Position numbers and translations under genes: made by a program
Shown here: piece after piece, positions 52,703-63,829 of the stretch
Numbering within the stretch: position 1 is the stretch's first letter
Layout of the letters: each line of letters begins with the position of its first letter
Notes under the pieces: generated by a model
Told to the model about the DNA's origin: nothing
Database searches by the model: none
Seen by the model: the letters and a program-made list of their open reading frames with translations, nothing else
NCBI GenBank assembly: GCA_937892155.1
Contig: CALAUG010000032.1
Span: 1,517-65,516 of the forward strand
Direction of reading: 5' to 3'
Length of the DNA: 64,000 nt
Source of the DNA: an uncultured Bacteroidales bacterium
GTDB taxonomy: Bacteria > Bacteroidota > Bacteroidia > Bacteroidales > UBA1715

Positions 52703-52844
52703 TTACTGGTTCCAATATTTTGCTTCTTTGACCAAGGAGTACATCATTACATTTTAATCTCAATTTTTGTCATTTCAACCGAATTGAATGCGAGAATTTC
52801 AAATTCTATTGTTGTTTTGCAGACGAATTGATATATCATCAAAT

Positions 52845-54416
52845 ATGGGAAAGATTGGAAACATGGCAGTGACCCTTCTATTACTGATTGGCACTGCGTT
52901 TTCGGCACAAGCACAACTAATATTGGTACTATCCTTGGATGAGTGCCGGGATCTTGCTCTTGAAAATAACAAACAATTAAAAATAGCTCAGGAAGAAATT
53001 AACAAAGCTGGCTACGATAAAAAATCTGCATTTGCCAACTATCTTCCAAAAGTTTCTGTTTCTGGTATTTACGCATATAATAACCAAGACATACAGTTAC
53101 TAAGCGACGAACAAGACGAGGCCTTACGAAATCTCGGGACAAGCATTGGCACTGAATTAGGAGGTTCATTACAACAAATGCAACAAAACGCAATGAGCAC
53201 CATTCAACAGGTGCTTGCAAATCCAGCAGCCGATCCTGCACTGGCAACGCTTGTGGCATCAAGTCCAACTGTACAATCTATCCTACAAAAAATACAAACT
53301 ACCGACCTTGCCAGCACACTTGCTCCTACCGCCGCATCTATGAATGCACTTGGAGGAGATTTAGCCGACAACTTTATGCTTGACACAAGAAACGTCTTCG
53401 CTGGAATTATTTCAGTACAGGAACCATTATTTCTCGGCGGAAAGATTGTTACCTACAACAAAATCGCAGCTGCTAAGAAAGAATTAGAGGCTACAAAATA
53501 TACTTCCGAAGAGTTTGAAACATTGGTTGCAACCGACAAATTGTATTGGCAAATCGTTTCGCTTACCAACAAATTAAAACTGACACAAAAATATGTAGAA
53601 TTACTGCAAACAATGTCGAACAACGTCGAGAAAATGGCTAAGGAAGGTATCGCGACAATGTCGGACAAACTTGCAGTGAAAGTTAAATTAAATCAGGCAG
53701 AAACCACACTATTGAAAGTAGAAAACGGCCTTGCACTGTCAAAAATGCTTCTATGCCAACATTGCGGCATCGATATGAACACAAACCTATCTCTTGCCGA
53801 CGAAACACTTGAAAATGTTGAAGTTTCAGAAACAACTCCTCACTATACTGAAGATGACATAGTAGCGAACAGACCAGAACTTAAAAGTTTAAGCCTTGCA
53901 ACCGAGATTTACAAGCAAAATGTAAATCTTACCCGTTCTGAGTATTTACCAACCATTGCAGCGTTTGGAAACTATGTAATTTCTAATCCATCATGCTCCA
54001 ACGGATTTCAAAATGAATTTGACGGATTCTGGAACGTAGGTGTAGTTGCTAAAATTCCTATTCTCCAATGGGGCGAAGGCACAAACAAAATCCGGAAAGC
54101 AAAAGCTGATGCAAAAATTGCTGAATATAAGTTAGAAGACAGCAAGGAAAAAATCATGCTACAAGTCAATCAATATGAACGTCAAATAGAAGAAGCAAAA
54201 TCGTACGTTAAAATGGCAGAAGAAAAAATGTCGGATGCTGAAGAGAACCTCCGCATGGCAACTCTCGGATTTGACGAAGGAGTTATAGCTTCATCGGTGC
54301 TAAACGAAGCTCAAACAGCATGGCTTCAAGCTCACTCCGACTATATTGACGCAAAAATCGACTGGATTATGGCCAAAGTATATTTACAAAAAGCAGCAGG
54401 TATGTTAAATAAATAA
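52845..54416 (+). CDS. TolC-family outer-membrane efflux protein
   Basis: Signal peptide, and two OEP-like repeats with coiled-coil heptads (LSLDECRDLALENNKQLKIAQEEI ...). Confidence 0.85.
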   Translation: MGKIGNMAVTLLLLIGTAFSAQAQLILVLSLDECRDLALENNKQLKIAQEEINKAGYDKKSAFANYLPKVSVSGIYAYNNQDIQLLSDEQDEALRNLGTSIGTELGGSLQQMQQNAMSTIQQVLANPAADPALATLVASSPTVQSILQKIQTTDLASTLAPTAASMNALGGDLADNFMLDTRNVFAGIISVQEPLFLGGKIVTYNKIAAAKKELEATKYTSEEFETLVATDKLYWQIVSLTNKLKLTQKYVELLQTMSNNVEKMAKEGIATMSDKLAVKVKLNQAETTLLKVENGLALSKMLLCQHCGIDMNTNLSLADETLENVEVSETTPHYTEDDIVANRPELKSLSLATEIYKQNVNLTRSEYLPTIAAFGNYVISNPSCSNGFQNEFDGFWNVGVVAKIPILQWGEGTNKIRKAKADAKIAEYKLEDSKEKIMLQVNQYERQIEEAKSYVKMAEEKMSDAEENLRMATLGFDEGVIASSVLNEAQTAWLQAHSDYIDAKIDWIMAKVYLQKAAGMLNK

Positions 54417-54428
54417 AACTTATTCGGT

Positions 54429-55427
54429 ATGGCAACAGATAGACAACAGACAATAAACACTTTTGCAGCATTAGGAGTTTTAGCGATTATTCTCGGTGCA
54501 GTTTGCGTAATTGGTATTCTTACCTTTGGTAAAACCGACGAAATTATTCAAGGACAAGCAGAAGCAAATGAATATAGAGTTTCCAGTAAAGTTCCTGGAC
54601 GTATTTTGGAATTCAGGGTACACGAAGGTCAGAAAGTAAAGGCAGGCGATACACTTGCTATTATCGAAGCTCCCGAAGTTGAGGCAAAAATGGCACAAGC
54701 AGAAGCTGTAAAAACAGCTGCCGAAGCCCAAAACACTAAAGCAGAAAAAGGTGCGCGCCGCGAACAAATACAAGCAGCCTACGAAATGTGGCAAAAAGCA
54801 AAAACGGGAAGAGAAATCACTGAAAAATCATACAACCGTATTAGCAACCTTTTTAAAGAAGGGGTTGTTAGTGAACAGAAATACGACGAAGTAAAAGCTC
54901 AATACGATGCTGCTATTTCTACCGAAAATGCAGCAAAAGCACAATATACCTTGGCAGTAAAGGGTGCTCAGGCAGAAGATAAGGAAATGGCTGCAGCACA
55001 AGTAAAACAAGCAGAAGGTGTTGTTGCCGAAGTAACATCGTATGTAAACGAAACCATCTTAACGGCTTACGCCGACGGAGATGTCACAGAGATTTATCCT
55101 CACATCGGAGAATTAGTTGGAACCGGCGCTCCAATTATGTCAATCGCAATGCTGAACGACATGTGGGCTACATTCAACGTGCGTGAAGACTATCTTAAAT
55201 CTATTAGAATAGGAAGCGAATTTGAAGCATACATTCCTGCTCTTGACACAACAGCAACTATGCGCATTGATTTTATGAAAGATTTAGGCGACTACGCTGC
55301 ATGGAAAGCAACCAAACAATCTGGTCAATATGATTTAAAGACATTTGAAGTTCGTGCTGTAACGACATCAAATATTGCTGGATTACGTCCAGGGATGACT
55401 GTTTTATATAAAATCAACGAAAAATAA
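54429..55427 (+). CDS. HlyD-family periplasmic adaptor subunit
   Basis: N-terminal TM, lipoyl-like motif (VKAGDTLAIIE), long alpha-hairpin, and a beta-barrel C-terminus. Confidence 0.85.
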   Translation: MATDRQQTINTFAALGVLAIILGAVCVIGILTFGKTDEIIQGQAEANEYRVSSKVPGRILEFRVHEGQKVKAGDTLAIIEAPEVEAKMAQAEAVKTAAEAQNTKAEKGARREQIQAAYEMWQKAKTGREITEKSYNRISNLFKEGVVSEQKYDEVKAQYDAAISTENAAKAQYTLAVKGAQAEDKEMAAAQVKQAEGVVAEVTSYVNETILTAYADGDVTEIYPHIGELVGTGAPIMSIAMLNDMWATFNVREDYLKSIRIGSEFEAYIPALDTTATMRIDFMKDLGDYAAWKATKQSGQYDLKTFEVRAVTTSNIAGLRPGMTVLYKINEK

Positions 55428-55442
55428 ATTAATCTTCTGTCT

Positions 55443-56612
55443 ATGCTGAATGGCAGTATGATACTATCGGTGGCAAAACGGGAAGTAAAGCGTTTACTAT
55501 CCCGCCCCGTATATATTTTCTCTATGGTGTTGACACCGCTATTCGGCTACATATTTTTCACCACACTGATGCAGGACGGTCTTCCGAACGACTTGCCCGC
55601 CGGTGTTGTTGATGCCGACAACACATCGGTATCCAGACAGATTATTAGAAATCTTGACGCTTTTCAACAGACAAAAATAGTTGAGAATTATGAGAATTTT
55701 GCCAAAGCACGTGAAGCAATGCAACGTGGCGAAATATACTCAATTTACTATATTCCAGAGGGCACGACGCGTGAAGCACTTGCCAGTAAGCAACCGACAA
55801 TTTCATTCTATACATCAGCATCATATCTGGTTCCAGCATCTTTGGAATACCGCGATATGAAAATGATGTCGGAATATGCTTCCGGAGCTATTGCACGAAG
55901 CACGCTATACGCCAAAGGATACACGGAAGATCAGGCTATGGCAATGTTGCAGCCAGTAAAAATGGAAATGCACGCCGTTCATAACCCTGCACTGAATTAT
56001 TCCATTTACCTATCAAATTCTCTACTTCCAGCCCTGTTAATGCTTCTGATTTTTCAAGTAACTATCTTCTCAATTTATTCCGAATTGAAAGAAGAAACAT
56101 CAAAAGAATGGCTCGCAATGACTGGAAACAACATCTATAAAGCGGTGATTGGCAAATTGTTGCCTCAATTTGTCATTTGGGTACTGATGGGATTTGCCTA
56201 CCTAATTATTCTCTACGGATACTGGCATTTTCCATTATATAGCGGTTTATTACCAATGATAGTGTTGATGATAGTGTTCGTGGTTGTCTGTCAATGGTTT
56301 GGCGTATTTTTGTGCGGTGCCGTTCCTTCACTTCGTTGGGCTTTGAGTTTAGCAACACTATGGGGAGTTTTGTCATTTCCTATCTGCGGTTTTTCTTTTC
56401 CACAAATGGCATTTCCACCCGCACTCAAAGGACTGTCATATCTATTCCCAATGCGCTATTATTTCCTAATTTATGTAGACCAGGCTCTTAACGGCATTTC
56501 TTTCGGATATACGTGGCTGTACTACGTACTGCTGCTGTCCTTCCTCATATTACCAATATTCGTGATGGGACGACTGAAGAAATTCCTGCTGGAATATCAT
56601 TATCAAATATAA
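55443..56612 (+). CDS. ABC-2 type transporter permease
   Basis: N-terminal TM, ~150-aa external loop, and five C-terminal TMs (YbhS/YhhJ-like). Confidence 0.8.
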   Translation: MLNGSMILSVAKREVKRLLSRPVYIFSMVLTPLFGYIFFTTLMQDGLPNDLPAGVVDADNTSVSRQIIRNLDAFQQTKIVENYENFAKAREAMQRGEIYSIYYIPEGTTREALASKQPTISFYTSASYLVPASLEYRDMKMMSEYASGAIARSTLYAKGYTEDQAMAMLQPVKMEMHAVHNPALNYSIYLSNSLLPALLMLLIFQVTIFSIYSELKEETSKEWLAMTGNNIYKAVIGKLLPQFVIWVLMGFAYLIILYGYWHFPLYSGLLPMIVLMIVFVVVCQWFGVFLCGAVPSLRWALSLATLWGVLSFPICGFSFPQMAFPPALKGLSYLFPMRYYFLIYVDQALNGISFGYTWLYYVLLLSFLILPIFVMGRLKKFLLEYHYQI

Positions 56613-56616
56613 CAGT

Positions 56617-57774
56617 ATGAAGTGGATGTTTAACATATTGGATGTGTGGAGACACGAATTTTTCCGTTCATTGAAAGATGAAGGAGTTCTTGTCTTTTTC
56701 CTTATTGTTCCTCTATTGTATCCACTGCTCTATGCATATTTGTACAATAATGAAGCTGTGCGCGAAGTTCCAACCGTTGTTGTTGACAACAGCCATTCAA
56801 GTGCCAGCCGCGAATTTCTCCGTAATGTTGATGCAAGCGGCGATGTAAAAATTATAGGACATTGCGCCGATTTTTTGGAAGCACAGGAACTCATTCGCAA
56901 CCACAAGGCATATTGCCTTATCTATGTTCCAGATAATTTTCATAAAAACATTCTCGAAGGCAAACAGGCAATCGTTGAATTATATAGCGATATGAGCGGA
57001 TTATTGTATTACAAAGCTGTACTCAGTTCCTGTACTGAAGTGTCGCTTGCAATGAATCAGGACATAAAAACGCAGCGATTGGTCGGCGCCACCAAAGAAC
57101 AGGCTGATGCGTTTGCTTATCCTATTAAATATGAATACGTTCCACTTTTTAATACGCAAAGTGGTTTTGCCACATTTATCATTCCCGCAGTCCTCATAAT
57201 GATTATCCAACAGACATTACTCCTCGGCGTTGGAATGCTTATGGGCGACGAAAGAGAAAAACGGCAGAAAGGAATCTTATATGGTCATCTTGTTGAAAGA
57301 AAACCTATAGAAATATTATTAGGAAAAGCAGCTGCGTATTTCGGCATTTACATGCTCATTGCGGCATACCTTATCTGCATTCCCAACTTTTTCGGACTGA
57401 TACACATTTGGCAATGGAAAACTCTACTGGCATTTATGTTTCCGTTGGTCCTCGACTGCGTATTTTTCAGTATGGCCATATCGACATTTGCCCGCGACCG
57501 TGAGGTATTTATCGTACTTTTTGTCTGTATGTCCGTTCCGTTGTTATTTATGTCTGGTATATCGTGGCCGGCTACAGCCATACCTTCGGTATGGAAAGCC
57601 CTATCGTACGCATTCCCGTCAACCTTCGGCATAAACGGATTTGTACGAATCACAGAAATGGGCGCACTTATTCAGGATGTGCAATTTGAATTAATTGCTT
57701 TGTGGATTCAAGTTTTTGTCTTTTTCGCTGCCACATGGATTTTGTATAGAAAGAGATACAAAAATAATGAGTAA
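56617..57774 (+). CDS. ABC-2 type transporter permease
   Basis: Paralog of the preceding gene with the same topology. Confidence 0.8.
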   Translation: MKWMFNILDVWRHEFFRSLKDEGVLVFFLIVPLLYPLLYAYLYNNEAVREVPTVVVDNSHSSASREFLRNVDASGDVKIIGHCADFLEAQELIRNHKAYCLIYVPDNFHKNILEGKQAIVELYSDMSGLLYYKAVLSSCTEVSLAMNQDIKTQRLVGATKEQADAFAYPIKYEYVPLFNTQSGFATFIIPAVLIMIIQQTLLLGVGMLMGDEREKRQKGILYGHLVERKPIEILLGKAAAYFGIYMLIAAYLICIPNFFGLIHIWQWKTLLAFMFPLVLDCVFFSMAISTFARDREVFIVLFVCMSVPLLFMSGISWPATAIPSVWKALSYAFPSTFGINGFVRITEMGALIQDVQFELIALWIQVFVFFAATWILYRKRYKNNE

Positions 57775-57895: not shown

Positions 57896-59395
57896 TTATT
57901 GAAATAGTTTCTTAAAACAGTTGATTCCCTCTTCCAAATTTGCTATTATATCCGCGGCTATTTCATCGGGATCAGGAAGATTATCCAAATCTGTTAGGCT
58001 TTTGTCTTTTAACCAGAATATATCCAGGTTAGTTTTATCGCGCGCTATTACCTCATCGTAGGTAAACTTACGCCAACGGCCTTCTGGATTTTCTTCGCTC
58101 CAAGTCTCGGTACGCACATGTCTATTCTCTGGATTATAGCATTTTATAAAGTCTGACAAATCTTCGAAAGTCAACGGAGATTTCTTTAACGTATGATGAA
58201 TATTGGTGCGGTAGTCGTAAATCCAAATATCCTTGGTCTGCACTTCCTTGCTTGCTGGTTTATTATCGAAAAACAACACATTTGCCTTCACGCCATTTGC
58301 ATAGAAAATTCCTGTAGGCAATCGCAAAATTGTGTGCAAATCTGTGGTTTTCATAAGTTGCTTGCGAATCTCCTCGCCCGCTCCTCCTTCGAACAACACA
58401 TTATCTGGCAATACAACTGCAGCTTGTCCATTGATTTTCATCAAGGTTTTGATATGTTGCAAGAAATTCAACTGTTTGTTGGAAGTTGTTTCCCAGAAAT
58501 CCTGACGGTTATAACTCAAATCCTCTTTTTCTATTTCTCCATCTTCGTTGGTAATTGTTATGCTACTTTTCTTTCCAAACGGTGGATTTGTTAGCACATA
58601 ATCGTAACGATTGCCATTGTCAGCCACTAAGGCATCGTTTGGAGAAATAAAATCTTCGCTATCCAACTCGCCTATGTTGTGCAAATACAAATTCATCAAA
58701 CATAAACGGCGGGTATTTGCAACAATTTCGTTTCCGAAGAAGGTTTTCTTCTTCAAGAACTGTTTTTCGTCTTTGTTTAATGATTGTCCTGCCAGATAAT
58801 CGTACGAAGCAAGGAAGAAACCACCGGTTCCACAAGCCGGATCGATAATGGTTTTCTGTGGCTTAGGACGAACGCATTCCACCATCGCCTTTATCAAAGC
58901 ACGAGGTGTAAAATACTGACCTGCTCCACTCTTGGTATCTTCGGCATTTTTCTCCAACAAGCCTTCGTAGATTTTACCCTTAATATCGGAGCCCATCAAT
59001 GACCAATTCTCCTTATTAATCATTTCGATTACTCGAAGCAATTTTGCTGGATCCTGAATCTTATTCTGGCTCTTGGTATAGATTTGTCCAAGCATACCTT
59101 TTTCGGTTGCCAAACTACGAAGCATTTGAACATAATATGCTTCAAGTTCCGCACCACGTTTGCTTGTAAGCGTTTCCCAATCGCACATTTCACCATCTGG
59201 AAGTTCCTTACCTTCGGCATCTTTTACGCGTGGAAATTTCAAACCTTTGTTGTATGGCGGTTTGTTCATCTCATCTGCCATTTTCAAGAAAAGCAGATAG
59301 GTGATTTGTTCCAAATAATCACCATAACTCACACCATCGTCGCGCAGCACATTGGCCATATTCCAAATTTTCGAAATGATTGTTGATTCTGTCAT
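57896..59395 (-). CDS. hsdM: type I restriction-modification system methyltransferase subunit
   Basis: HsdM N-terminal domain (IWNMANVLRD), motif I DPACGTGGF, and motif IV NPPFGKK. Confidence 0.9.
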   Translation of the reverse strand: MTESTIISKIWNMANVLRDDGVSYGDYLEQITYLLFLKMADEMNKPPYNKGLKFPRVKDAEGKELPDGEMCDWETLTSKRGAELEAYYVQMLRSLATEKGMLGQIYTKSQNKIQDPAKLLRVIEMINKENWSLMGSDIKGKIYEGLLEKNAEDTKSGAGQYFTPRALIKAMVECVRPKPQKTIIDPACGTGGFFLASYDYLAGQSLNKDEKQFLKKKTFFGNEIVANTRRLCLMNLYLHNIGELDSEDFISPNDALVADNGNRYDYVLTNPPFGKKSSITITNEDGEIEKEDLSYNRQDFWETTSNKQLNFLQHIKTLMKINGQAAVVLPDNVLFEGGAGEEIRKQLMKTTDLHTILRLPTGIFYANGVKANVLFFDNKPASKEVQTKDIWIYDYRTNIHHTLKKSPLTFEDLSDFIKCYNPENRHVRTETWSEENPEGRWRKFTYDEVIARDKTNLDIFWLKDKSLTDLDNLPDPDEIAADIIANLEEGINCFKKLFQ

Positions 59396-59411
59396 AATTG
59401 AAAATTGAAAA

Positions 59412-60179
59412 TTATATTTCTATATGTTTTGATCTGCTAAAATTATTGCAAATATGTTCATTATTGCATACATATCCCAATTGATTACTGATGATTTTTG
59501 TTTTACCTATCACGAGATCCAAATTTCTATGAGAATGCCCATAAATCCAATAATCAATGTCGGCATCTGCAATGTATTCTCCTAATTCACATGCAAAGGC
59601 ACCATTTATTTGATTGCCTTGAAACTCTTTTGCGACAACAGAATAGGTTGGCAGATGATGCGTCAACACTATTTTATTTCTTGCAGTACTTTCTTTTATC
59701 GCATTTTTAATAAATGTTATGCATTTTTCATTTTCAGCATTAAAAGCATCAGCAGTCAATCTGTATTTCCCATTTCTAATCCTATAGAAATCACTTACGC
59801 CGTGTTCGGTAGCATAAAAATCAACAGGGTTAATGTGTCCCCATAGTGTTGAAACAATTACATCCAATCCGGGGAATCGCACAACGGAATTATAGTAAAA
59901 ATGGACATTGTGCCTGATTTCGCCTATTAGTCCATCCTTCAAACTGGAGATATCATAATATTGATATAGTTCGTGATTACCTATGCAAACAACCACTTCT
60001 TGATAGTTTCTTGAAGCCCAATCCCAAAAGAAATGATTTTCATATTCGGGCGTATTCAAGTAAGCTGTATCACCAGCCATCAAAAGAATATCACCAGAAA
60101 CCTCTATTGGATATTTCTTGAGATATTCAGAATTCTCCTTAAATTCCAAATGTAAATCGCTCAGGTACTGAATTTTCAT
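59412..60179 (-). CDS. calcineurin-like metallophosphoesterase
   Basis: SDLHLE, GDTAY, GNHE, THH and GHSH motifs. ATGA overlap with the upstream NTase gene; lies 16 nt upstream of hsdM. Confidence 0.8.
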   Translation of the reverse strand: MKIQYLSDLHLEFKENSEYLKKYPIEVSGDILLMAGDTAYLNTPEYENHFFWDWASRNYQEVVVCIGNHELYQYYDISSLKDGLIGEIRHNVHFYYNSVVRFPGLDVIVSTLWGHINPVDFYATEHGVSDFYRIRNGKYRLTADAFNAENEKCITFIKNAIKESTARNKIVLTHHLPTYSVVAKEFQGNQINGAFACELGEYIADADIDYWIYGHSHRNLDLVIGKTKIISNQLGYVCNNEHICNNFSRSKHIEI

Positions 60180-60964
60180 TTTTCCAACACGAATAGTTCG
60201 TCCAGCAAATTTAAATACTCAGTTATTGCCTCGGGCGGAACAGACATTGATTGTGCCAAAACTTGTGGAGAGTCCTGATGAATCCGTCTCATTTCCGAAA
60301 CAAATTCCACAGCGTCCCCAAAGATGGAATGACACACTGAAACTGGTCCTATTGCCTTACCCGTCGCCATTAGGTTGAGGATATCACGACGATGTTTCAA
60401 AATATCATCTGAATGAACGGTTTTTCCTTCTTTTTTGTCTTTGCTTAAATTTAGGAAAGCACGCATTTTCAGGGCAATCAAGGCGATTTCATCAGCCATT
60501 CTCAACCCCTCACGGATTTCGCTGTGGGCAATCGTAAAATCATATAAATCCTTGTCCATAACAATGGAGGAAAGACTGTATTGTCCGCCATTAGCCGAGA
60601 TGGGTTCAATCCGTATGTTTTGAGGTTCAAGTAATCGCTCCGCTTGAGAAGCCAGCAATTCAATCTGCCAAGGAAAACCCTCTTGTGAGGGATGATTAAA
60701 ACGATACAAAGCATAGACAATTTTGCCAACGCTGTTTTCCCTTTTTCCAATTGAATAGCCACCATTATGAATAAACTGCCAAAAATCGCTGAGGAAATCA
60801 CGGGTAATATTGTCAACGATGACAATCAAATCTATATCTTTGGTCACATGGCGTGTCCGTCCAGTATCAGCCAGGCAAACCTCGCAAGCAGTTCCTCCTA
60901 TGACAATGAAGTTATCTATATGGTCTTGCATTGCCTCCCTAAATATTTCATATCCCGTTACCAT
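60176..60964 (-). CDS. Pol-beta-fold nucleotidyltransferase, AbiEii/AbiGii toxin-like
   Basis: VIGGTACEVCL (hGG[ST]) and TKDIDLIV (DxD), with a later K..A...KHRRD segment. Its start overlaps the upstream gene by 7 nt (ATGGTAA). Confidence 0.55.
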   Translation of the reverse strand: MVTGYEIFREAMQDHIDNFIVIGGTACEVCLADTGRTRHVTKDIDLIVIVDNITRDFLSDFWQFIHNGGYSIGKRENSVGKIVYALYRFNHPSQEGFPWQIELLASQAERLLEPQNIRIEPISANGGQYSLSSIVMDKDLYDFTIAHSEIREGLRMADEIALIALKMRAFLNLSKDKKEGKTVHSDDILKHRRDILNLMATGKAIGPVSVCHSIFGDAVEFVSEMRRIHQDSPQVLAQSMSVPPEAITEYLNLLDELFVLEK

Positions 60965-61908
60965 AGCTTCTTCATCATTGTTTCGACTTCTTTTTCAATT
61001 CTTGGGTCATCCGTTTCTTTCAGGCTTAGAGCCAAGGATATTTTGTCCACAGTTTGCATATCGGATTCAATGGGATGATATTTCCAGCATTCAATTTTAT
61101 ATTGTCCTTCAATTGGATTCAAATTTTTGAAGTTTTCATTATCTTTTCCTCTGTTGAAGGATTTTGTTTCTAAAGCGTAGGTTATCAACTCGTCCGAATT
61201 TATCATAGTGAATTTGGATAAGGCACTCACGCCAGCCAACCAAAGACCTTGCGTGTTTTTTATTTCGTCGCAGTACCATACCGACTGCACGGGATTAATC
61301 AAAAAACTTTGTGAACGGGCGAGCAATTGTTCTTTTGATTCAGGAAAAACCAAATGCTTAAATCGCTGGTCATCAATTTCAATTTCACACAATTTCAATC
61401 CAAGGAGGACTTTGATGGCGCGCGTAACCGTTGTGTATTGCAAATGCGTAGCAGCAGCGATTTCACTTGCGGTTAGATGGGTCAAGTTTTCCTTCTGCAA
61501 ATGATAGAGTAACAAATATTGAGCTGTTGAAGTAAGAGTTTTGTATTGTTTGGAGCCTACCGACTTTGAATTAATGATTATTGATGGCAGATAGGCATAT
61601 TTGTTGCTAACGATGAAAAACACGTTTTTCTCCGCCAAACGCATACGCAGGTAATAGGGAATATCGTCAAATACAAAAACTGCAACTTCGCCCATCATAA
61701 GTCCAATGCGGTCAGACAAATAGCGTAACTGCTTGGGTGTAAAATTCTGTTGGACTGATTGTTGCAGCAACAGCAAAGACTGCCCATTATATTCAGAACG
61801 GGCGACATTGAAAAAAATCCAGACATCTGGAGGGAGATTTTTCTGTTTCAATTCAGTTGTTGAAACAAGGCTTACATCCAAAGCTTTGTTAAATATTTTC
61901 ACTTCCAT
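60958..61908 (-). CDS. wHTH protein, AbiEi antitoxin-like, with an extra ~120-aa N-terminal domain
   Basis: Central HTH (LTASEIAAATHLQYTTVTRAIKVL) followed by a C-terminal domain (LAGVSALSKFTMINSDE...). Its position and translational coupling fit a cognate regulator or antitoxin. Confidence 0.45.
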   Translation of the reverse strand: MEVKIFNKALDVSLVSTTELKQKNLPPDVWIFFNVARSEYNGQSLLLLQQSVQQNFTPKQLRYLSDRIGLMMGEVAVFVFDDIPYYLRMRLAEKNVFFIVSNKYAYLPSIIINSKSVGSKQYKTLTSTAQYLLLYHLQKENLTHLTASEIAAATHLQYTTVTRAIKVLLGLKLCEIEIDDQRFKHLVFPESKEQLLARSQSFLINPVQSVWYCDEIKNTQGLWLAGVSALSKFTMINSDELITYALETKSFNRGKDNENFKNLNPIEGQYKIECWKYHPIESDMQTVDKISLALSLKETDDPRIEKEVETMMKKLW

Positions 61909-61918
61909 ATTTTCAATA

Positions 61919-61959
61919 ATTTTGCACTATTTTCATACACATTGAAAACAGTGCAAAAT
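61919..61959. promoter_or_regulatory. 16-nt inverted repeat (15/16 match) immediately upstream of the wHTH gene, candidate autoregulatory operator
   Basis: ATTTTGCACTATTTTC (61919-61934) and GAAAACAGTGCAAAAT (61944-61959), with a 9-nt spacer. The left arm lies 11 nt from the ATG at 61908. Confidence 0.45.
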
Positions 61960-62037
61960 AGCAATAATATTTTGATTATCAACATAAGCCCCAAAATTTT
62001 TTAACTACATTTATAAGTCAAACAGCTTATAAATTCA

Positions 62038-63255
62038 TTACACCAGCTCTCCGCTAAACGCTTTTTTCAGAATGCTCTGCCTCAATGCCTCGGCTTGTTG
62101 CAACGATTGTTCGATGCTGGCTTCGACAAGCTCAGCCTGCGACAATCGGGTTTCGATTTCTTGGACTATACGTTGCTGCTCGGGAAGAGACGGAAGGGGA
62201 AATGGGATTTGTTTAATAATACCAATGTTTAAAACATCCATCGTTGTCCCACTAGCATTGATTTTGTAAAAAGATTTCACTTTAGAACTTTCAAAATAAT
62301 ATTTGAAAAATTTTGCATCATAGATTTGTTGGTTCAAAGTTATCTTTATTAAACGAGGATTTATAATTCCTTCTTTAACACCTTTAGGAAGTATTAAAAC
62401 CTTACCTACAGTACCAACTAGACTAATCAAAATATCACCTTCCTGTATTTTACAAGATTCAAGTTCTTTATATTTAGTCTCATCAACATAATAATTACCA
62501 ATAAATGGATTACCATTTATAACCTGCTCTTGACCATATATTTTATATCCTTTTTCGACATAACAATCTTTTTTTAATGCAGATCCAAAAGGTCCTGCTT
62601 TTAAAGCATTTTTCCCCTTTTCTATTATATCAATAATATTTACAATAGGCCATTCTTGTTTAGTCAAGCAATCATTCAGCACCGCTTGCCTATAAACTTT
62701 TAATTGTAGCTGTGCGGTTTTCAGTTTTTCCACGCCTTTGTCCAACTCGGCAAAGAGGGATTCTATACGGGTTACTATGGCGCGCTGGGTAGCGAGAGGG
62801 GGAAGAGTTACTTCATATTCTTTCAGCCACTCCGTACTCATATTTTTCTGAGCAATTCCTTTTGAAGAGTCTATACAATCTTTTTCAAAAGAATCAGTAT
62901 TAAATAAATGAAATAAATACTGCAAAGAAACAAGGCTTTTGTCTTTTACCCGAAGACATCCAACTCGCTGATTTAATGCAGCAGGAAGAAGTTCTTCATT
63001 CAAAATCCCCACTCGTCCGACATTTCCCGTTAATGAAATCAATAAATCACCTTTCTTCAGAACATATTTTTTCAGTTCTTCTTGTGTTTCAATCGGATAA
63101 AATTGTGGTTCTTCGTCAATTACAAAACCTTTTTTGACATTTGTAATTCTAATAACTCTCAATCCATCAGAAACATAATTAGAACTCTTGAATGCAAAAC
63201 CATTCAAGATATCACATATTTCGCCGAGTTTGTATGTTGGATAAGAGCTATTCAT
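62038..63255 (-). CDS. hsdS: type I restriction-modification system specificity subunit
   Basis: Two target-recognition domains are separated by conserved helices (LPPLATQRAIVTRIESLFAELD; LPSLPEQQRIVQEIETRLSQAE). Confidence 0.85.
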   Translation of the reverse strand: MNSSYPTYKLGEICDILNGFAFKSSNYVSDGLRVIRITNVKKGFVIDEEPQFYPIETQEELKKYVLKKGDLLISLTGNVGRVGILNEELLPAALNQRVGCLRVKDKSLVSLQYLFHLFNTDSFEKDCIDSSKGIAQKNMSTEWLKEYEVTLPPLATQRAIVTRIESLFAELDKGVEKLKTAQLQLKVYRQAVLNDCLTKQEWPIVNIIDIIEKGKNALKAGPFGSALKKDCYVEKGYKIYGQEQVINGNPFIGNYYVDETKYKELESCKIQEGDILISLVGTVGKVLILPKGVKEGIINPRLIKITLNQQIYDAKFFKYYFESSKVKSFYKINASGTTMDVLNIGIIKQIPFPLPSLPEQQRIVQEIETRLSQAELVEASIEQSLQQAEALRQSILKKAFSGELV

Positions 63256-63829
63256 TGCGTATTCCCTTTAAATTATAAATAAGACTAATTCCACCTATAA
63301 ACATCTCTGTTTTTGTCTTATCATCAACTTTTACCGCCAATTCATGAGTTATATGGTTTCTCAAAACCTTAAACGCACAACAAAATTGAAAAGAATCTTC
63401 TTCAATCCACGAGTGTTCTTTTGCATATTCAAGCAATTTATGAAATGTTGGTATTTTAGTGTTTTCTTGATTCTCTTGGACAAATCTATCTTTCAATAAA
63501 TTTTCAATAATTTTTGCAAGTTTTTGCAATGCCCCCTCATCATCACCAATAGTAATTAATTTTTCTATTGAATATAATTCCTCAGCAACCTTTTCATCAA
63601 CTCCTTTATACTGGACTCTCAAATTTACGATCAATTGCTTTATCGGCTCGGGCAAATCTTGCTGATGTAACTTCAAATATTCATCAAGCAACACCAAAAT
63701 ATCTTTTTTTTGCTTTTGATTTATAGCCTTTAACTTCTGGTTTTCCTGATATTTGTTATAGCCAAATGCTATTCCAAAAACAGCTAACAAGCCAACACAT
63801 ACAAATAATATGGTTTCTTTTTTATTCAT
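63248..63829 (-). CDS. membrane-anchored HEPN-like (DUF4145-like) protein
   Basis: N-terminal TM (ILFVCVGLLAVFGIAFG), coiled-coil linker, and a C-terminal Rx4H motif (LRNHITHE, R157/H162). Its stop overlaps the hsdS start by 8 nt. Confidence 0.5.
   Translation of the reverse strand: MNKKETILFVCVGLLAVFGIAFGYNKYQENQKLKAINQKQKKDILVLLDEYLKLHQQDLPEPIKQLIVNLRVQYKGVDEKVAEELYSIEKLITIGDDEGALQKLAKIIENLLKDRFVQENQENTKIPTFHKLLEYAKEHSWIEEDSFQFCCAFKVLRNHITHELAVKVDDKTKTEMFIGGISLIYNLKGIRNE

Follow-up and report, generated by a model that had tools for sequence, protein, structure and literature searches.

A predicted AbiE/MenAT-type toxin-antitoxin module with an accessory metallophosphoesterase, nested in a type I restriction-modification operon of an uncultured Bacteroidales bacterium

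AbiE systems, described from Lactococcus lactis and Streptococcus agalactiae, consist of a gene for a winged helix-turn-helix (wHTH) protein, AbiEi, followed by a gene for a DUF1814-type nucleotidyltransferase (NTase), AbiEii, with inverted repeats preceding the upstream gene. The type VII toxin-antitoxins MenAT1 and MenAT3 of Mycobacterium tuberculosis have NTase toxins that act on tRNA 3' ends. Antitoxin-induced auto-phosphorylation was recently found to inactivate the toxins of both groups, and their re-activation, or recovery from them, has explicitly been left open. Here, we describe a three-gene cassette in a 64,000-nucleotide stretch of DNA from an uncultured Bacteroidales bacterium of the UBA1715 lineage (contig CALAUG010000032.1, positions 1,517 to 65,516), which we refer to as the window. 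The genes, here called W, N, and P, lie between hsdS and hsdM of a type I restriction-modification (R-M) operon. With moderate confidence, we read the cassette as a divergent and mobile toxin-antitoxin (abortive-infection) module of the AbiE/MenAT type that includes an accessory phosphoesterase and has landed inside this operon, with W as its autorepressor and antitoxin and P acting on RNA 3' ends.

The resemblance to AbiE lies in the gene order of the W-N pair, in the inverted repeat before its upstream gene, in a common active-site set (RxT-x-DxD, K, and D), and in a role in phage defense or as a toxin-antitoxin, which for W-N is predicted; moreover, the same P family adjoins bona fide AbiEi_4/AbiEii pairs. 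W-N differs from AbiE in that N scores under the Pfam cut-off and is missed by the AbiE models of PADLOC, in that W is a 316-aa protein with its wHTH in mid-protein between two orphan domains and no detectable AbiEi similarity, and in that the pair usually comes with a translationally coupled metallophosphoesterase. Among the MenAT proteins, MenT1 is the best structural match of N, and both have the (in N, putative) phospho-acceptor Thr two residues before DxD. However, N is only 14 to 15% identical to these toxins, with TM-scores of 0.4 to 0.5, its C-terminal helical region is longer than that of MenT1, and MenAT operons have no phosphatase gene, dephosphorylation there being ascribed to the cellular PP2C enzyme PstP. 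MenAT-type antitoxins are structurally diverse, so a W unrelated to them is not unexpected. Judged from sequence, the cassette is an AbiE/MenAT-type module undetected by current models, with a three-domain regulator and a family-wide operator, and by analogy the W-N pair most likely works like AbiE and MenAT.

An earlier note on this DNA had proposed an AbiE-like cassette at these positions, and its coordinates, the ATGGTAA and ATGA overlaps, and the 16-nt gap to hsdM were all reproduced from the sequence. The features are as follows.

60958-61908, minus strand: W, 316 aa, presumed antitoxin and autorepressor (gene order and analogy)
61579-61908, minus strand: W N-terminal alpha/beta domain, about aa 1-110 (AlphaFold model)
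61339-61530, minus strand: W MarR-like wHTH, about aa 127-190 (AlphaFold model)
60961-61296, minus strand: W C-terminal alpha/beta domain, about aa 205-316 (AlphaFold model)
60958-60964, minus strand: W/N overlap ATGGTAA, 7 nt; W ends in Trp-stop and N begins Met-Val
60176-60964, minus strand: N, 262 aa, AbiEii/MenT-type NTase, presumed toxin (profile, structure-model, and motif comparison)
60830-60850, minus strand: N active-site loop H39-V40-T41-K42-D43-I44-D45 (RxT-x-DxD motif)
60176-60179, minus strand: N/P overlap ATGA, 4 nt; the N stop shares the P start
59412-60179, minus strand: P, 255 aa, calcineurin-like metallophosphoesterase, accessory third component (Pfam Metallophos, 1.5e-15)
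61919-61959, no strand assigned: operator-like palindrome, ATTTTGCACTGTTTTCA-N7-TGAAAATAGTGCAAAAT read on the minus strand, 10 nt 5' of the W ATG
61909-62037, minus strand: hsdS/W spacer, 129 nt, with the operator-like palindrome; internal promoter presumed
59396-59411, minus strand: P/hsdM gap, 16 nt, from the P stop to the hsdM ATG
57896-59395, minus strand: hsdM, type I R-M methyltransferase subunit (Pfam N6_Mtase 1e-69 and HsdM_N; PADLOC MTase_I 1e-191)
62038-63255, minus strand: hsdS, type I R-M specificity subunit (Pfam Methylase_S 3e-36; PADLOC Specificity_I 4e-69)
63248-63829, minus strand: 193-aa open reading frame overlapping the hsdS start by 8 nt; weak DUF4145 match (E 0.045)

W, N, and P are real genes, each with hundreds of conserved homologues. 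The W/N overlap, as ATGGTAA or ATGGTAG, was found in 72 of 108 representative loci, and N and P overlap by ATGA in 32 of 70 loci and by 1 nt in 13 of the 70, so that both overlaps are traits of the family. Together, the two overlaps point to translational coupling along the cassette. A terminator scan detected no terminator-like site in the 16-nt gap between P and hsdM, and transcription of hsdM therefore probably reads through from the cassette. A promoter is presumed in the hsdS/W spacer; no strict Bacteroides-type promoter (TTTG/TAnnTTTG) occurs in the locus, this spacer included. Sigma-70 and terminator scans of the locus yielded nothing informative, an Rfam search of it gave no real match, and base composition carries no sign of an insertion, the GC content of the cassette (0.34 to 0.43) being similar to that of the flanks.

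The assignment of N draws on its relatives, a structure model, and its motifs. Of 34 N relatives, 16 match PF08843 (AbiEii) at E<=0.1 (best 4.3e-6) and 12 match DUF6036, with weak NTP_transf_2 and DUF2204 matches also seen among the relatives; window N itself found no match in PADLOC, AbiE models included, or in NCBIfam. When the AlphaFold model of N (predicted local distance difference test [pLDDT] score of 86) was compared to the Protein Data Bank (PDB) with Foldseek, MenT1 (8rr5/8an4) ranked first (probability 0.99-1.0, E 6e-3), followed by MenT3/TglT. Alignment of the N family to canonical AbiEii with hhalign gave an E value of 8.6e-4 over 169 columns (probability 24%) and placed the GG, RxT-x-DxD, Lys, and Asp motifs in register, N being aligned to RPT-L-DID, K182, and KDFFD. 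The residue set of the MenT/AbiEii NTase fold ([ST]-x-D-x-D, a catalytic Lys, and a distal Asp) is complete: T41, D43, D45, E102, K166, and D194 do not vary in any of 125 non-redundant relatives, and position 39, a His in window N, is Arg in 120 of the 125. The IGGTAC and TKDIDL motifs that had been quoted for N are present, and its proposed membership of the AbiEii/MenT superfamily, weak by Pfam, agrees with the results of Foldseek (MenT1) and hhalign (AbiEii). By these comparisons, N is best read as a distant AbiEii/MenT-type NTase. A sequence search of the PDB with the N profile was set aside, as it returned only spurious estrogen-receptor matches.

T41 of N stands in the register of MenT1 T39 (MenT1 R37-F38-T39-R40-D41xD43), to which MenT3 S78 and AbiEii T65 have been named equivalent, and all three of these residues are auto-phosphorylated under antitoxin control. 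The conserved NTase-fold residues of MenT1 are T39, D41, K137, and D152, and a T39A mutant is still active; strict conservation of the Thr in N therefore fits a regulatory acceptor. We had also considered T25, the Thr of the IGGT motif, as the acceptor, and dropped it because the MenT1 numbering places the acceptor two residues before DxD, that is, at T41. The N family comprises 755 clusters (50% identity) at E<=1e-30; W-N is thus common but invisible to the Pfam cut-off and to PADLOC, so censuses of defense systems in Bacteroidota miss it. A few N relatives (P0105, P0107, P0172, and P0224) are extended at the C terminus by about 190 aa in which no domain is recognisable, and one of them carries a C-terminal MarR-like wHTH and may be an N-regulator fusion.

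The AlphaFold model of W (pLDDT 89) has three domains, and in Foldseek searches of the PDB and BFVD it retrieved only MarR-family wHTH proteins; the corresponding MarR_2 Pfam match (E 9e-5) is under the cut-off. The central wHTH and the additional N-terminal domain proposed for W were thus recovered in the model, the former as a MarR-type domain. Sequence profiles built from the whole of W, from its last 117 aa, and from its first 114 aa found no PDB relative of the flanking domains. The suggestion that the C-terminal domain is AbiEi-like found no support: none of 18 W relatives matched the AbiEi Pfam models (AbiEi_1/3/4) at E<=1, only MarR-type HTH models being matched, and three hhalign runs of W against canonical AbiEi gave E values of 0.54, 0.12, and 0.11 and aligned only a 15-column SAL/SAW patch. 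Because these runs were non-significant, we do not file W as AbiEi. Nor does W have the AbiEi layout of an N-terminal wHTH and one C-terminal domain, since a 110-aa domain precedes its central wHTH and a 112-aa domain follows.

The inverted repeat noted at the start of W exists and proved to be a conserved, operator-like palindrome of the family. Its 17-nt arms (61919-61935 and 61943-61959) are complementary at 16 of 17 positions (94%), are separated by a 7-nt loop, and lie 10 nt from the start codon of W. When the 130-nt upstream region was shuffled 30 times, the best repeats averaged 7.5 matched pairs and reached at most 11, versus 16 observed. Among 117 representative loci, 22 have a strict TTGCA-N-TGCAA palindrome 5' of W, compared to 5 of 22,640 control windows; for a relaxed form, the counts are 45 of the 117 W upstream regions and 29 of the 22,640 windows. 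In many loci, the family form, TTGCAY..TCA-N7-TGA..RTGCAA, lies 2 to 26 nt 5' of the W ATG, and its inner positions co-vary between loci. In loci with the order P-W-N, the palindrome sits between P and W, so the regulated unit is W-N. The conserved site supports autoregulation by W, which would bind it.

For gene context, we collected 254 N-encoding loci from genomes, IMG/VR, metagenomes, and exact-match contigs; they form 133 clusters at 90% identity, 80 of which have at least 900 nt on both sides and are called informative here. W adjoins N in every locus with enough sequence (133 non-redundant loci). P lies next to W-N in 63 of the 80 informative clusters, downstream in 53 (W-N-P) and upstream in 10 (P-W-N), so that the triad is strongly co-conserved, as had been expected. 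The remaining 17 clusters have only W-N; they include a locus whose P slot is filled by a divergent Metallophos gene (L247; loci of our set carry L numbers), one with a 1107-aa gene between N and P (L073), and at least 7 true stand-alone pairs with a convergent downstream gene. Since 17 of 80 loci have no adjacent P, stand-alone pairs among them, the core is W-N, and P is a frequent but optional partner. The earlier note had taken P for an obligate third member, which does not stand. The P family is also found with canonical AbiEi/AbiEii and without any NTase. Overall, the AbiE-like reading keeps N and the pair, by architecture and predicted function, and loses the AbiEi homology of W and the obligate P.

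The flanks of W-N(-P) are hypervariable, and carriers include prophages and elements with integrase and conjugative-transposon genes. Among the neighbors are other defense genes: cyclic-oligonucleotide-based antiphage signaling system (CBASS), SAVED, AbiTii, GmrSD, SIR2-STAND, and Fic genes. Identical W-N-P cassettes in Bacteroides, Leyella, and Prevotella (L034-L041), with Toprim primase, HTH_17, AAA_25, DUF4134, and TraG genes as neighbors, indicate recent spread on a conjugative transposon.

P scores 58.6 bits against PF00149 (Metallophos; cut-off 21.5) and has every one of the metal-binding motifs (DxH, GD, GNH[ED], H, and GHxH), including the previously quoted SDLHLE, GDTAY, GNHE, and GHSH. 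The ligands D8, H10, D37, N68, H69, H174, H215, and H217 are kept in 89 to 91 of 91 relatives. P is thus predicted to be a catalytically intact metallophosphoesterase, in line with its earlier description as a calcineurin-like phosphoesterase. It matches phrog_1649 (phage metallo-phosphoesterase) over its full length (E 1.9e-38, residues 1-243), whereas its match to the PADLOC candidate PDC-S10 (7e-10) is confined to the N-terminal half; PDC-S10 is matched by all 30 P relatives tested (best 1.6e-15). Like P, both are uncharacterised metallophosphoesterases, but neither has been described as a partner of AbiE-type pairs. Literature searches for a system of AbiE and a phosphoesterase, for DS-9, and for PDC-S10 found nothing relevant, and the supplement of the 'embedded defences' preprint contained no matching text. 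PPP-type Ser/Thr protein phosphatases have the signatures GDxHG and GDxVDRG; these are absent from P, which has SDLHLE and AGDTAY in their place. A sequence search of the PDB with P found no phosphatase, only weak matches to 6UNC and MPPED2 that say little on substrate.

A scan of IMG/VR with the P alignment returned 235 relatives, and we examined the context of the best 80. Sixty-four of these are W-N-P loci, 2 are N-P loci at a contig end, and 14 have neither W nor N. In three of the 14, P is directly followed by genes for canonical AbiEi_4 (Pfam 4e-9) and AbiEii (Pfam 1e-48), with a phage tape-measure gene next to them; this leaves 11 of the best 80 P loci without an AbiE-type NTase. A converse scan with canonical AbiEii, covering 22 loci, showed the order P-Ei-Eii in 14, Ei-Eii-P with a 4-nt overlap in 2, and no P in 6; the canonical pairs flanked by the P family are in Bacteroidales prophages. 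In one viral contig (L095, 7054-11062; IMG/VR UViG_3300045988_180191), W, N, P, AbiEi, and AbiEii are consecutive, with one P between two AbiE-type pairs. In the P tree, the copies that accompany canonical pairs branch from within the W-N-P clade. Because P occurs with canonical pairs in both orders and these copies nest in its tree, it is best described as a shared, exchangeable accessory of AbiE-type toxins.

Some P loci without an NTase have other coupled partners: a second, shorter Metallophos gene and a gene for a 437-aa unknown protein (L324-L329, 3417-6095), an AAA_14/DUF4143 ATPase gene (L330/L332, 2630-4762), or genes for a C5 DNA methyltransferase and two unknown proteins on a 387-kb viral contig (L255, 1689-5451).

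Full-length P relatives are also present in 146 phage genomes, mostly of T4-like and jumbo lytic phages. These relatives keep the metal ligands and, in addition, S7, TLW, D130, HHP, N192, W211, N232, and GY in 10 to 12 of 12 homologues; D[FY] is a further family-specific feature common to P and its phage relatives. We inspected the neighborhoods in 12 of the 146 genomes. A DNA ligase gene lies directly 5' of the P relative in two related jumbo phages, 121Q and pEa47, an RNA ligase gene lies 200 nt 3' of it in phage Cr30, and in two related Caulobacterales phages, Kikimora and CcrColossus, it is inside a tRNA gene cluster. Phage 121Q encodes a separate NinI-like protein phosphatase besides its P relative. 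The phosphoesterase partner is thus recurrent and common to canonical AbiE pairs and lytic phages, which offers a handle on toxin re-arming and recovery. In the T4-like Acinetobacter phage AB1I1M-1 (L362, 2501-3238), the P homologue is flanked by rIIA and rIIB, whose locus is known to counteract abortive infection.

In the mechanism that we favor, N would add nucleotides to tRNA 3' ends and thereby block translation, as its described relatives suggest. W would bind the palindrome of about 35 to 41 bp by its own start codon, repressing the W-N(-P, -hsdM) unit, and would neutralise N, most probably by inducing auto-phosphorylation of the invariant Thr41 in the manner of MenA1, MenA3, and AbiEi. 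P, in the least certain step, would trim or heal the RNA (tRNA) 3' ends modified by N-type toxins and so act as an enzymatic reset, or second antidote, that makes growth arrest reversible. Nesting between hsdS and hsdM puts one methyltransferase-subunit gene downstream of the module, an arrangement with repeated origins. A single RNA-end activity would explain why one P family serves two different AbiEii-type toxins, why P is also found without any NTase, and why lytic phages carry close family members beside ligase and tRNA genes, where they would serve as counter-defense. The substrate of P is probably generic or nucleic acid, given its loci without an AbiE-type NTase, its phage relatives with their ligase or tRNA neighbors, the separate protein phosphatase of 121Q, and the known trimming of tRNAs extended by MenT3. 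Metallophosphoesterase-fold enzymes of RNA end healing include the phosphatase domain of Clostridium thermocellum Pnkp and the 2',3'-cyclic phosphodiesterase activity of lambda phosphatase, and tRNA repair is carried out by T4 Pnk/Rnl1. These resemble the cassette in combining a metallophosphoesterase with an enzyme of nucleotidyl transfer on RNA ends (in our case a predicted one), and a further likeness is that phage relatives of P lie beside ligase or tRNA genes. They differ in that P has no detectable sequence relationship to them beyond superfamily motifs and in that N is a Pol-beta-fold NTase rather than a covalent ligase. If P does undo toxin damage to RNA, its phage copies would be a new class of counter-defense.

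Several points weigh against this interpretation. N scores only 15.3 bits against PF08843 (E 0.02; gathering cut-off 22.5), and the TM-scores of its model to MenT structures are modest (0.32 to 0.51). No homology of W to AbiEi, to MenA1, or to any antitoxin of solved structure was detected, and W is presumed to be the antitoxin from gene order and analogy. The toxin-antitoxin function of the W-N pair and its mechanism are predictions from sequence and context, as is the RNA activity of P. The weak sequence neighbors of P are generic phosphodiesterase-type enzymes (MPPED2, 6UNC, CpdA-like, and acc_ester). Ligase or tRNA neighbors were seen in only about 6 of the 12 inspected phages, several of which are interrelated, so this association is anecdotal. 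A co-expressed repair enzyme would, moreover, blunt the toxin during infection. Finally, the locus sets are non-random, similarity-ranked samples of the 'best 80' kind, and the fractions given here are accordingly descriptive.

The main competing view of P is that it is a cognate phosphatase: W-induced phosphorylation of Thr41 would yield a stockpile of inactive N, which P would re-arm once infection disables W. We regard this as possible but doubtful. P belongs to a superfamily that includes Ser/Thr protein phosphatases, and both of its partners, N and canonical AbiEii, have the RxT-x-DxD loop, whose Thr never varies among the 125 N sequences. Phosphorylated MenT1 T39, MenT3 S78, and AbiEii T65 are dephosphorylated in vitro by PstP or SaSTP, and the authors of the MenT/AbiEii phosphorylation work proposed, and left open, a phosphatase role in toxin re-activation in vivo. 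However, the enzymes known to remove these phosphates are of the PP2C type rather than metallophosphoesterases, P has neither PPP-family motif, its family is maintained with its specific residues in 146 phage genomes, for which activation of an Abi toxin would serve no evident purpose, phage 121Q has a NinI-type phosphatase of its own, and neither kind of NTase partner is present in 11 of the best 80 P loci. Extended tRNAs made by MenT3 are trimmed by RNase PH and the CCA-adding enzyme, and this known tRNA trimming, the presence of P in lytic phages and NTase-free loci, the missing PPP motifs, and the ligase and tRNA neighbors make an RNA-end role the more economical single explanation. P may therefore act in RNA-end processing, which we rank first, with the phosphatase role a close second; it is in either case a concrete candidate for toxin reset, by undoing RNA damage, or for re-arming. 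Should P strip the Thr41 phosphate, it would provide a genetic answer to how phosphorylated AbiEii/MenT toxins are re-armed in vivo, and the cassette would be the first toxin-antitoxin-reactivator (three-part type VII) system, with the same role for P beside canonical AbiE pairs in Bacteroidales prophages, a proposal that we put forward with equal reserve. It seems improbable that P is instead an independent, PDC-S10-like single-gene defense or effector (a nuclease or a nucleotide or cyclic-nucleotide phosphodiesterase) that merely travels with AbiE-type pairs. All 30 tested relatives match PDC-S10, the PDC candidates of PADLOC were derived from genes embedded in defense systems, P is also found with an AAA_14/DUF4143 ATPase, a second small Metallophos gene, or a C5 methyltransferase, and 17 of 80 W-N pairs have no P family; yet the PDC-S10 match is limited to the N-terminal half, N and P overlap by ATGA or 1 nt in 45 of 70 loci, P stands beside two different AbiE-type pair families in both orders, and a divergent Metallophos gene occupies the same slot in L247.

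Two further alternatives concern the module as a whole. Toxin or abortive-infection modules among hsd genes have precedents in PrrC/EcoprrI and in DarTG2 (with RptR), whose islands are likewise controlled by a dedicated repressor and palindromic or repeat operators, and 'guilt by embedding' provides a further precedent for the nesting. Their toxins, an anticodon nuclease and a DNA ADP-ribosyltransferase, are unrelated to N, W-N-P splits hsdS from hsdM, and most W-N-P relatives are not R-M linked. At least three arrangements of the module inside type I R-M operons were found. The window N, by exact match, is always in the same, though variable, operon. In Empedobacter tilapiae (L089, 2466-10140), the order is hsdM, CD-NTase, an E2-like CBASS gene, P-W-N, hsdS, AbiTii, SAVED, and hsdR; a further locus (L094) has hsdM, W-N, a 196-aa gene, and hsdS; and 5 of 7 informative P-W-N loci have either 0 to 13 nt or an overlap between hsdM and P and between N and hsdS. 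The nesting pointed out for the window is thus confirmed and recurs in other lineages, whereas in the window's own clade, hsd genes adjoin only 3 of the 45 informative W-N-P loci. A cassette wired to R-M like PrrC/EcoprrI, firing as a back-up when a phage anti-restriction protein inactivates the type I enzyme or stabilising the operon as an addiction module, would account for the nesting in the window lineage, Empedobacter, L094, and the P-W-N loci, and the embedding would then belong to the mechanism and not be accidental. We nevertheless consider it unlikely, given the 3 of 45, the location of most W-N-P loci in conjugative transposons, prophages, and other islands, and the lack in W, N, and P of any sequence feature tying them to Hsd proteins. 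Rather, nesting between hsdM and hsdS is recurrent and probably favored, with no need of it for function, and the repeated splitting offers a clean natural case for the co-regulation of embedded modules with R-M genes. We give very little credence to the view that this is not a toxin system at all, W being an ordinary MarR regulator and N a small-molecule, e.g., antibiotic-modifying, NTase on mobile elements. The occurrence on conjugative transposons, the AbiEii score of N under gathering, and the weak DUF6036, NTP_transf_2, and DUF2204 matches of its relatives would suit it; they are outweighed by MenT toxins as the best structural matches of N, the invariant MenT/AbiEii motif set, the fixed overlap with a wHTH partner behind an autoregulatory-type palindrome, and the defense genes nearby.

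The operon of the window has the general form hsdR, accessory gene, hsdS, W-N-P, sometimes a Schlafen-like gene, and hsdM; hsdR lies outside the window and is present upstream in the sister contig L082. The triad, hsdM, and the hsdS 3' end (from ~62196) are 95 to 98% identical between the window and the sister contigs L081-L083, whereas the hsdS target-recognition regions (window 62196-63255) are unrelated except for a conserved segment of ~130 nt, which indicates specificity-domain swapping. Between hsdR and hsdS, the window has the 193-aa open reading frame and the sister contigs have a DUF1016/YhcG-type gene, so that this position looks like a second variable accessory slot of the operon. 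In L081 (6108-7827), a Schlafen-AlbA_2/HATPase_c_4 gene stands between P and hsdM together with a 45-aa duplicated HsdM N-terminal fragment, which resembles the trace that an insertion into this operon by recombination would leave. The CBASS parts of the Empedobacter tilapiae locus are split by the other inserts of its operon. An efflux-type operon convergent with hsdM (window 52788-57774, plus strand), which encodes OEP/TolC-like and HlyD-like proteins and two ABC-2 permeases, is unrelated to the cassette.

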